From NCBI GenBank assembly GCA_023898665.1, contig CP060233.1, forward strand, positions 548,368 to 612,367: 64,000 nt of DNA, given 5' to 3'. Of this stretch, positions 49,237 to 50,337 are shown piece by piece. A model generated the notes under the pieces. The model did not search any database and had not been told where the DNA came from. It worked only from the letters and a program-made list of their open reading frames with translations. Position 1 is the stretch's first letter, and every line of letters starts with the position of its first letter. Position numbers and translations under genes: made by a program. The DNA comes from Candidatus Nomurabacteria bacterium. GTDB taxonomy: Bacteria > Patescibacteriota > Saccharimonadia > Saccharimonadales > HK-STAS-PATE-42.

Positions 49237-49438
49237 ATCTTTTTTTAGATTTTAACCTTTTTTAATTAATGTTTTGATTAATTTGATATTTCAGTTTTCT
49301 CTTGAAACAATCTTTTAGCCCGCTAGAGTTACTACACTTTAAAATCTGTAGTTTTTCTATTGATACAGCCTTAACGTTTTAGCCTGCATCAATAGTTATC
49401 AGTGGAACTCGGATCAGCTCAGAGAAATACTAAACTTA

Positions 49439-49468
49439 ATTTTACACTAGAGGTAGTGCATTTTGCAA
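49439..49468 (-). promoter_or_regulatory. Candidate sigma70-like promoter upstream of tuf
   Basis: Minus strand: TTGCAA, an 18-nt spacer, then TAAAAT. This leaves a leader of about 200 nt before tuf. Confidence 0.35.
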
Positions 49469-49485
49469 ACCGCTATTAGCTCAAC

Positions 49486-49785
49486 TTAAAGAAATCTTGC
49501 CCAGGGTCTTTCGTCCTCAAATGGCCAACTAATTATTTTAGGAGGTAAATCAAAAGCGATATTACTTACTAGTGCACCTATATTATCCATAAATAAAGTC
49601 TTAAGTAAGCTAATAGCCTCTCTATGAGGGATTACGGATGGTAAGTCGAGATCTTCTGGAAAGTGACTTGATCTAAATCCCATGTCTTCTTCGGCATCTT
49701 TTTTTAAATCTTCAGAGTGAGGATTATCAGCCAGCTGAAGAGTTGGAGTTTTTTCCGGATGTAGCTCTGCCTGCGCAATAGCCAT
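49486..49785 (-). CDS. Hypothetical protein (99 aa), third ORF of the fusA-tuf insert
   Basis: ORF with its own candidate promoter. No motif recognised. Confidence 0.35.
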   Translation of the reverse strand: MAIAQAELHPEKTPTLQLADNPHSEDLKKDAEEDMGFRSSHFPEDLDLPSVIPHREAISLLKTLFMDNIGALVSNIAFDLPPKIISWPFEDERPWARFL

Positions 49786-49817
49786 AAATAAAACCGGTTT
49801 AATTAAACTTAACTGGA

Positions 49818-49845
49818 ATTATACGCCTACTATGTATTTAATCAA
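49818..49845 (-). promoter_or_regulatory. Near-consensus sigma70-like promoter inside the fusA-tuf insert
   Basis: Minus strand: TTGATT, a 16-nt spacer, then TATAAT. It overlaps the stop of ORF 49838-50071. Confidence 0.45.
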
Positions 49846-50071
49846 CATCTGTTGTTGTATTGTCTGGGCTAGAATCTGCCTTCTCCTGATTATCAGTGAG
49901 TGGAGGGATTGATAATAAGTTTTCAACACAACTAGGAAAATGTGAGGTTATACGCCATACTTCCCGGGCAATGCTACAGAGATACTCGAGTGGCTTAAGT
50001 CCCTCAATCGTTATGTCTGGACTCTTTTTAAAAGGGCTTGCACCAATATTCTTAGTCATGCTTCTTGTCAT
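49838..50071 (-). CDS. Hypothetical protein (77 aa), second ORF of the fusA-tuf insert
   Basis: ORF overlapping the previous one by 20 nt in another frame. The two could be one gene with a frameshift. Confidence 0.3.
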   Translation of the reverse strand: MTRSMTKNIGASPFKKSPDITIEGLKPLEYLCSIAREVWRITSHFPSCVENLLSIPPLTDNQEKADSSPDNTTTDVD

Positions 50072-50327
50072 AAAGTTTACCTAAGTCTTCTATCTCGTTT
50101 TTTGCTATTTCTCTAAAGACCTTATCGACAATTGCCCCCATTCTTTCTACTTCGCCTCCTGATGGTGGTGGAGTGGCTGACGGACCTATAGCATACGAAG
50201 GATCTGTAGCACGAGTAACTGTTGCCCCAATCCCAGGTCTCTTACCCGTAAAAGACCGGTCGCGTGGGGCGCGATGCATCTGGGCTTGGTGGATAGAAGC
50301 ATCTTCCTTTGGAACTCCACCGTACAT
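50052..50327 (-). CDS. Hypothetical protein (91 aa), first ORF of the fusA-tuf insert
   Basis: The ATG lies 10 nt after the fusA stop, with an aaggaaaa RBS. The N-terminal half is Pro/Gly/Arg-rich and the C-terminus is helical. Local G+C is clearly elevated. Confidence 0.35.
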   Translation of the reverse strand: MYGGVPKEDASIHQAQMHRAPRDRSFTGKRPGIGATVTRATDPSYAIGPSATPPPSGGEVERMGAIVDKVFREIAKNEIEDLGKLYDKKHD

Positions 50328-50337
50328 ATTATTTTCC

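Follow-up and report, generated by a model that had tools for sequence, protein, structure and literature searches.

The window analysed here is a stretch of 64,000 nucleotides from Candidatus Nomurabacteria bacterium (contig CP060233.1, positions 548,368 to 612,367), and the element under study is the spacer between its fusA and tuf genes. Both genes lie on the minus strand, as do all of the features described between them. fusA (50338-52425; EF-G, 695 aa, with Pfam EF-G domains) is followed by open reading frame 1 (ORF1; 50052-50327, 91 aa), which NCBI annotates as hypothetical protein H6799_03355, by ORF2 (49838-50071; 77 aa, or 73 aa if the second ATG is used), and by ORF3 (49486-49785; 99 aa, acidic, with an isoelectric point of 4.7), after which come tuf (48049-49236; EF-Tu, 395 aa, identified by Pfam) and, as the next gene, rpsJ (47693-48016). 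Within its 1101 nt the gap accommodates three ORFs, a structured leader and a pair of internal promoters. The ATG of ORF1 is found 10 nt past the fusA TAA, behind GAGGAGTAAGGA, with AAGGA/GAGGAG as its ribosome-binding site; the last 20 nt of ORF1 are shared with ORF2 (8 nt if ORF2 starts at its second ATG); and the stop codon of ORF2 falls within the -35 element of the ORF3 promoter (TTGATT-16-TATAAT, 49818-49845). The spacer from ORF3 to tuf measures 249 nt and possesses a promoter of its own (TTGCAA-18-TAAAAT, 49439-49468). A first-pass annotation of the window had described this anatomy, and its coordinates, ORF sizes, 10-nt spacing, 20-nt overlap and promoter positions all hold, as does the stretch of about 250 nt with a second, now demonstrably conserved, promoter before tuf. 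In the canonical str operon of E. coli and most bacteria (rpsL-rpsG-fusA-tufA) fusA and tuf are likewise co-oriented neighbours, with probable read-through from one to the other in both cases, but in the window rpsL-rpsG are not found upstream of fusA, and the gap is 1101 nt rather than tens to approximately 200 nt.

The closest relatives for comparison were obtained through an exhaustive HMMER search with ORF3, the one ORF searched in this way, which revealed three homologues of 79-91 aa (E values of 5e-11 to 2e-4); a fourth came from a cluster look-up. A further match, the 451-aa tandem-repeat protein P0006, was judged spurious, as its repeats inflate the score. The four lineages (L168, L165/L166, L167 and L179) share 89-91% identity with the window in EF-G, 89-99% in EF-Tu and 95% in ribosomal protein S10. 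L168 displays the same order as the window, namely fusA, ORF(s), the ORF3 homologue, a spacer of approximately 235 nt, tuf, rpsJ, a small gene and dnaE; the shorter contigs show those parts of the gene order that they cover, that of L167 being 902 nt in length. Scans of genomes and metagenomes based upon EF-G returned relatives of at most 76% identity, none of which carries the ORFs; within this outer circle, EF-G of the window is 71-76% identical to that of Saccharibacteria genome bins. EF-G thereby assigns the window to Saccharibacteria/Patescibacteria; the NCBI label of the genome bin is "Candidatus Nomurabacteria", with H6799_ locus tags.

DNA homology between the window and its closest relatives extends exactly as far as the stop codon of fusA. 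It is next found at the ORF3 promoter blocks and then again over the last ~15 codons of ORF3 (49530), from which point through the spacer and tuf the identity to the relatives is 78-87%. The segment containing ORF1 and ORF2 (approximately 49860-50337), referred to here as the slot, is unalignable to any relative. Among the lineages the slot is roughly 315-740 nt long, and its flanks are 79-90% identical.

ORF3 presents a different picture. Homologues are found at the same position in all four closest relatives, with 35-41% identity (P0004, P0005, P0007, P0008). Alignment of the five family members reveals a conserved C-terminal A.D.P....W.(F/L).D.RPW and a central motif, FP.D..LPS.(I/L)PH(R/Q)E, which is missing in two of the five; the N-termini are variable, acidic and proline-rich. 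The homologues of L167 and L179, the one informative pair, differ by 20 synonymous and seven nonsynonymous changes, giving a ratio of nonsynonymous to synonymous substitution rates (dN/dS) of 0.093. ORF3 is a genuine gene; purifying selection acts on it within lineages, and between them it diverges fast. Its promoter, TTGAT(T/A)A-N16-GTATAA, is kept in all five lineages amid scrambled sequence. No member of the family was found in 160 more distant loci. An AlphaFold2 model of ORF3, made without an alignment, gave two helices at low confidence (predicted local distance difference test score, pLDDT, 57). The product may be a small binding or adaptor protein that acts via the conserved motifs and is co-expressed with EF-Tu.

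The third part of the spacer consists of the tuf promoter and leader. The promoter TTGCAA-18-TAAAAT is present in five lineages. Promoter-like matches in the surrounding 5.2 kb are as numerous as in shuffles (11 found against 11.0 expected), and both internal promoters, which were located by scanning, owe their credibility to conservation in the relatives and not to their likeness to the consensus; judged by that conservation, the two promoters proposed earlier are real. Position 49439 is the last of the conserved -10 element, and the closing helix of the leader begins approximately 7 nt further on, at about 49432. Of the ~200 nt of leader the first ~140 nt (49291-49434) constitute a multi-hairpin domain in which two hairpins are enclosed by an inner helix and by a closing helix formed from UAGUAUUUCUCU and AGAGAAAACUG, an architecture that is alike in four lineages, in which the fold reaches z-scores of -4.1 to -6.2. 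RNAalifold reveals compensatory double changes in 12 of 58 pairs. In hairpin P3 (49357-49395) the 13 pairs are paired in 98% of cells and seven have changed on both sides; at most one of 500 shuffles was as good (0-1/500), and slid controls gave none. The apical loop of P3, GCUAAAACGUUAAGG, is invariant, unique within the window and found only in loci of this clade. The last ~55 nt before the tuf ATG (49237-49290) are A-rich, nearly invariant and lack a canonical Shine-Dalgarno sequence. The alignments thus point to a secondary structure that is conserved through compensatory changes, and the leader presumably serves as a cis-regulatory element controlling translation of tuf or stability of its mRNA. 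Rfam holds no match to the leader or the region at gathering or E-value thresholds; the best hit, SNORD105 (23 bits; the gathering score is 45), is spurious.

More distant Saccharibacteria (L003, L005, L006, L065, L089, L093, L094) possess a TTTACA-17-TATAAT promoter approximately 70 nt 5′ of tuf, a short leader and AGGAG. The clade of the window has replaced this arrangement by TTGCAA-18-TAAAAT and a long structured leader. Across the window a Shine-Dalgarno-like motif is found upstream of only eight of 45 genes, and many genes carry a TATAAT/TAGAAT-like hexamer (often TGTTATAAT) just 7-15 nt before the start codon (examples are the gene starts at 8723, 17527, 30882, 34069-35547, 37096 and 62836-63801). 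This suggests that 5′ leaders are very short or absent in much of this genome, so that the ~200-nt tuf leader is an exception.

The contents of the slot differ from lineage to lineage. In place of ORF1 and ORF2 (91 and 77 aa), L165/L166 carry an ORF of 88 aa, L168 one of 98 aa, L179 one of 229 aa and L167 a partial ORF, and these are similar neither to one another nor to ORF1 or ORF2 at the protein, DNA or cross-frame level. The sole exception is a suggestive similarity between ORF2 and the partial ORF of L167, which share SIAR..PSCV (p 0.02, across 13 tests); the likeness of their C-terminal tails is explained by the overlap of both with the conserved promoter DNA. Resemblances noted by eye between ORF1 and the 88-aa ORF and between ORF2 and the 98-aa ORF were rejected upon shuffling (p 0.47 and 0.58). 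In the L165 lineage the 88-aa slot ORF has a near-consensus promoter of its own, TTGACA-17-TAGAAT, right after the fusA stop codon (approximately 1210-1240). Since the L165 ORF has this promoter and ORF1 of the window has only a ribosome-binding site, the slot cargo differs in its mode of expression.

For the manner in which the slot changes, the comparison of L167 with L179 is the most telling. The two are 90% identical over the promoter, the ORF3 homologue and the leader (synonymous divergence, dS, 0.41), and they cannot be aligned upstream of L167 position 167, with a sharp break at the end of the slot ORF. This break, seen with one short contig, indicates replacement. Because related lineages hold unrelated ORFs at exactly the same place, we surmise that the slot content would be turned over by recombinational replacement between two anchors, the 3′-end of fusA and the ORF3 promoter. 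Flexible genomic islets, in which variable genes lie between conserved core anchors and are exchanged by homologous recombination, offer a parallel: the slot shares with them sharp homology borders at two anchors and unrelated contents of differing length. It differs from them in being tiny (one or two genes), in possessing no mobility genes, in lying inside an operon instead of between operons or at a tRNA, and in that exchange is deduced from a single pair.

The three ORFs are probably real coding sequence, judging from ORF statistics and frame-specific composition. Three same-strand ATG-initiated ORFs of at least 75 codons, occupying 790 of 1101 nt, did not arise in any of 5000 composition-matched order-1 Markov simulations. 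Under a periodic Markov coding model trained on the genes of the window each ORF scores best of six frames in its own (ORF1 2.0, ORF2 3.5 and ORF3 6.6 bits per 100 nt). Held-out small genes score 0.3-11.2 and spurious ORFs average -3.3, with 15%, 6% and 1% of the latter reaching the scores of ORF1, ORF2 and ORF3, respectively. By this measure ORF3 looks like a normal gene, and ORF1 and ORF2 stand at the low end.

These low scores lend some weight to the view that ORF1 and ORF2 are non-functional, the slot being a fast-evolving transcribed spacer with transient ORFs, or proto-genes at most. It can also be pointed out in favor of this view that no homologues were found, that the segment is unconstrained across lineages and that the proteins are predicted to be mostly disordered; the AlphaFold2 model of ORF2, again made without an alignment, shows a helix at residues 22-53 as part of one helix pair and is otherwise disordered (pLDDT 68). 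Values of 57 and 68 for ORF3 and ORF2 are too low for a meaningful fold search. The features recall the species-specific prokaryotic orphans of Vakirlis and Kupczok 2024 (PMC11293555), which are characterized by host-like G+C content, a weaker coding signal and disorder; ORF1 and ORF2 share with these the lack of a detected homologue, matching G+C content, weak coding signal and disorder, and differ in occupying a fixed slot in a core translation operon, with a different orphan in each lineage. The restriction of ORF1 and ORF2 to one species holds against the databases searched, by a word-indexed method. A mere spacer is nevertheless unlikely. Same-strand ORFs fill 72-98% of the slot in all four lineages for which the full segment is available (P between 0 and 0.013 each), and neither the 229-codon ORF nor the ORF pair of the window was matched in any of 5000 simulations; with such filling in every lineage, it can be argued that the slot always carries coding sequence. 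In addition, the ribosome-binding site of ORF1 is well placed, and its G+C content declines from codon position 1 to 3 (0.60, 0.48, 0.36) as in fusA (0.58, 0.38, 0.30) and tuf (0.62, 0.37, 0.33), whereas ORF2 displays only the lower third-position value (0.44, 0.45, 0.33).

The arrangement of the ORFs in three frames, with ORF1 overlapping ORF2, invites a further explanation, that ORF1, ORF2 and possibly ORF3 are frameshifted pieces of one older gene, or the remains of a Phd/YefM-like gene. It would accord with the slot of L179, which is a single 229-aa ORF, and with the conserved small gene that precedes tuf in 21 other loci (described below). We consider it highly improbable: each ORF starts 3-18 codons past its upstream in-frame stop, the 229-aa ORF resembles none of them in any frame, and the sequence is identical in more than ten independent assemblies and is thus not the product of sequencing error. 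The hidden Markov model of the Phd-like family assigns scores of at most 0 to the ORFs and to the six-frame translation, and hhalign gives it a probability of 0.1% against the ORF3 family.

The base composition of the spacer had been taken to suggest foreign origin. The rise in G+C content at 50.0-50.3 kb is real, reaching 0.515 at 50101-50300, which places it in the top 0.24% of 200-nt windows, but it does not carry that conclusion. The bump is due to the amino acid content of ORF1, the N-terminal two thirds of which abound in Gly, Pro, Ala, Arg and Thr (by eye, the C-terminus looks helical), with the excess G+C at codon position 2. Third-position G+C content is 0.31 ± 0.05 for the genes of the window overall, and at 0.36, 0.33 and 0.26 in ORF1, ORF2 and ORF3 (the first and second positions of ORF3 being 0.54 and 0.37) the silent sites are host-like; the base-composition case for foreign origin fails. 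Nor does the GC-rich 50100-50337 behave as a structured RNA, since on neither strand is its fold more stable than that of shuffled sequence (z +1.2 and -0.45). The same origin had been read from the absence of a palindromic motif, TAAGCTTA, that is frequent in the rest of the window. The motif is indeed missing from the fusA-tuf region, but tuf lacks it too, and at one site per 1.7 kb a segment of 1.1 kb will be without it by chance about half of the time, so the absence carries no information.

These arguments belonged to the proposal that the ORFs are foreign selfish or defensive cargo (a toxin-antitoxin system, an anti-phage device or a mobile insert) carried within an operon of high expression. 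In its favor, ORF1 and ORF2 resemble a toxin-antitoxin pair in their small size, overlap and shared orientation; the segment differs between close lineages and has sharp borders; the L165 slot ORF brings its own promoter; and the pre-tuf gene of more distant Patescibacteria has a weakly Phd/YefM-like N-terminus. Profile searches with ORF1-3 and the slot ORFs of the relatives against Pfam, NCBIfam, PHROGs and PADLOC revealed nothing at E ≤1 apart from noise, in agreement with the earlier remark that the ORFs contain no recognisable motif. A sequence search of solved structures with the single ORFs and an ORF3 family profile likewise gave only noise, and viral contigs contain no relatives of ORF1-3. 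There are no flanking direct or inverted repeats, no integrase and no transposase, third-position G+C content equals that of the host, and neither ORF1 nor ORF2 has a co-varying partner gene. ORF3, which alone is conserved and has its own promoter, stays in place while its neighbors change. With type II toxin-antitoxin systems the window shares two small adjacent same-strand genes that are probably co-transcribed; the pair, however, has no toxin or antitoxin domain and recurs in no other genome searched. Such cargo is accordingly a poor candidate, and we rate it as quite unlikely.

What emerges instead is a spacer composed of three units of different history, a variable slot, the clade-conserved ORF3, and a conserved tuf promoter with its leader, and this is the reading that we consider probable. 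It divides what the first-pass annotation had regarded as a single lineage-specific cassette of three ORFs. That designation survives for the ORF1-ORF2 part, in whose place the relatives have unrelated ORFs and which recurs in none of them, and it does not survive for ORF3, which the proposed comparison of synteny finds at the same position in four relatives, or for the two promoters and the leader, all of which are ancestral to the clade with EF-G at least 89% identical. Several points weigh against this three-part history. The case for replacement is built on one pair, of which the L167 contig of 902 nt could be chimeric. Relative to the window the synonymous divergence of fusA is saturated (dS at least 1.65), and at such distances in-place divergence of weakly constrained genes is indistinguishable from replacement. 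The orphan status of ORF1 and ORF2 is weakly established: no homologue was found in 5.8 billion protein clusters or in 183 related loci, but the word-indexed search of the clusters, which returned only self-matches for ORF1, ORF2 and ORF3, missed the true ORF3 homologues, and its negatives are weak for this reason. To the low coding scores of ORF1 and ORF2 must be added that neither has a homologue showing selection, and that the cassette is free of polymorphism in the seven strain contigs that differ from the window. The structure models, made without alignments, are of low confidence, and a binding role for ORF3 is conjectural.

In terms of expression, fusA, ORF1, ORF2, ORF3, tuf and rpsJ would constitute one transcription unit with two internal promoters. 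A scan for terminators on the coding strand between these genes yielded nothing convincing, the one match, within ORF1, having a stem of only 5 bp. From the ribosome-binding site 10 nt past fusA, the overlap of the ORFs and the lack of a convincing terminator we infer that ORF1 and ORF2 may be expressed via read-through from the fusA promoter together with coupled translation; the earlier suggestion that ORF1 is expressed with fusA fits this placement. Their products would be small, soluble and largely disordered proteins.

Each part assembled here is of a known kind, whether orphan gene, clade-restricted small protein or structured leader. New are the slot at a fixed place behind fusA, whose small gene differs from lineage to lineage, together with the ORF3 family and the tuf leader RNA; all three are confined to a narrow clade. 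The slot represents a hotspot of gene turnover in a very strongly expressed operon and offers a compact natural system for the study of orphan-gene origins. ORF3 defines a new small-protein family, fast-evolving yet under selection and always located just before tuf. The leader is a new candidate regulatory RNA with an invariant loop that is not in Rfam. Autoregulatory leader RNAs are known for ribosomal-protein and translation-factor operons, for example the ribosomal-protein leaders of Rfam, and the tuf leader shares with them a conserved, covarying structure that separates a promoter from the start codon of a gene with a role in translation; it differs in matching no Rfam family and in being restricted to a narrow clade. 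To our knowledge no tuf leader of this kind has been described.

A more ambitious interpretation, which we offer as speculation with little expectation that it will prove correct in full, is that the slot serves as a dedicated exchange site where new small proteins are trialled at translation-factor levels of expression, and that ORF3 and the leader form a lineage-specific layer of EF-Tu control. If so, this layer might, for example, tune translation during an epibiotic life cycle or counter attacks that target EF-Tu, and a new class of tuf riboregulator and a small EF-Tu-associated protein family would have been found. Saccharibacteria have minimal genomes and depend upon host bacteria, for which reason additional control of EF-Tu, or accessory proteins at EF-Tu level, could matter to them.

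To place the spacer in a wider context, 82 related loci holding both fusA and tuf were surveyed. Gaps of more than 400 nt containing genes, and extending up to 3.4 kb, occur in 38 of the 82, and a gene between fusA and tuf is on this account ordinary in Patescibacteria. All 38 are Patescibacteria/Saccharibacteria bins or unlabelled metagenome contigs. Where a locus bears the label of another phylum, the gap is 35-219 nt and free of ORFs, except in L020 and L038, two bins that are labelled Gammaproteobacteria and carry a Patescibacteria small-protein family. Among Saccharibacteria with EF-G 71-74% identical to that of the window the smallest gap is 122 nt and empty (L093) and the largest 3.2 kb, and the contents are mutually unrelated. 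Matches of 20-24 bits by gap ORFs from L007, L091, L065 and L087 were rejected, being at chance level for the number of comparisons. The gap of L094 (3600-4439) holds a 279-aa HD-domain protein (Pfam E 1e-4) and that of L006 (8812-11105) two genes of about 400 and 364 aa; cargo as different as this speaks for a site at which insertions are tolerated throughout the class. For some of its members (EF-G 72-74% identical) the fusA-tuf linkage is itself broken, tuf not being found within 3.6-5 kb 3′ of fusA in L001, L002, L007, L085-L088, L090, L092, L095 and L099. A search of the literature yielded nothing relevant on a fusA-tuf insert or on changes to the str operon in Patescibacteria.

The small-protein family mentioned above consists of conserved proteins of 65-190 aa encoded on the same strand directly 5′ of tuf in 21 loci that possess both genes, with 30 members overall (L008 8724-9080, L010 8204-8575, L011 8094-8354, L012 8235-8483, L015 8057-8389, L020 3897-4319, L033 8100-8408, L121 6122-6520 and 22 further loci). 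The N-terminus, with the motif ..KTGD..I...D......VV.SL.EYE.L, is weakly similar to Phd/YefM antitoxins (Pfam E 0.006; YefM structures E 0.012), and many of the acidic tails terminate in EDLPF or YFEP. A partner toxin gene did not come to light, and neither the window nor its closest relatives possess a member of the family. ORF3 shares with these proteins position, strand and a similar size, without sequence or profile similarity, and is at most their positional analogue.

With regard to the neighborhood, fusA is the first gene of the local operon, and its 5′ neighbor is a divergent ORF of 203 aa without a Pfam match, not rpsG; L168 and L179 display the same divergent arrangement. No tRNA or tmRNA was found in the region. 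The fusA-tuf region is 100% identical in all contigs of the species. Strain contigs L171-L176, which stem from other samples, exhibit, relative to the window, tight clusters of synonymous single-nucleotide polymorphisms in dnaE (44439-44556 and 45315-45366) near the contig ends; either recombination between strains or an effect of assembly could have produced them. In these same contigs the fusA-tuf region does not vary.

The palindrome TAAGCTTA occurs at 37 sites in the window, where 3.6 are expected, an approximately ten-fold excess that none of 100 shuffles reached. Example sites are 4196, 30875, 32612, 46932 and 51480, and eight of the 37 are intergenic, non-coding sequence making up 14% of the window. 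In L165, L167, L168 and L179 the ORF3 homologue has a related word, TTAAGCT, downstream of its -10 element and ahead of the start codon. Possible meanings of TAAGCTTA are a word connected with methylation or restriction, a signal for uptake or one proximal to promoters.

Downstream of rpsJ lies a gene of 130 aa (146 aa in L168) without a Pfam match, followed by dnaE and not by rplC-rplD (window 46989-48016 and 43188-46895; L168 7697-12240). The S10 ribosomal-protein operon is likewise broken up in the clade of the window.

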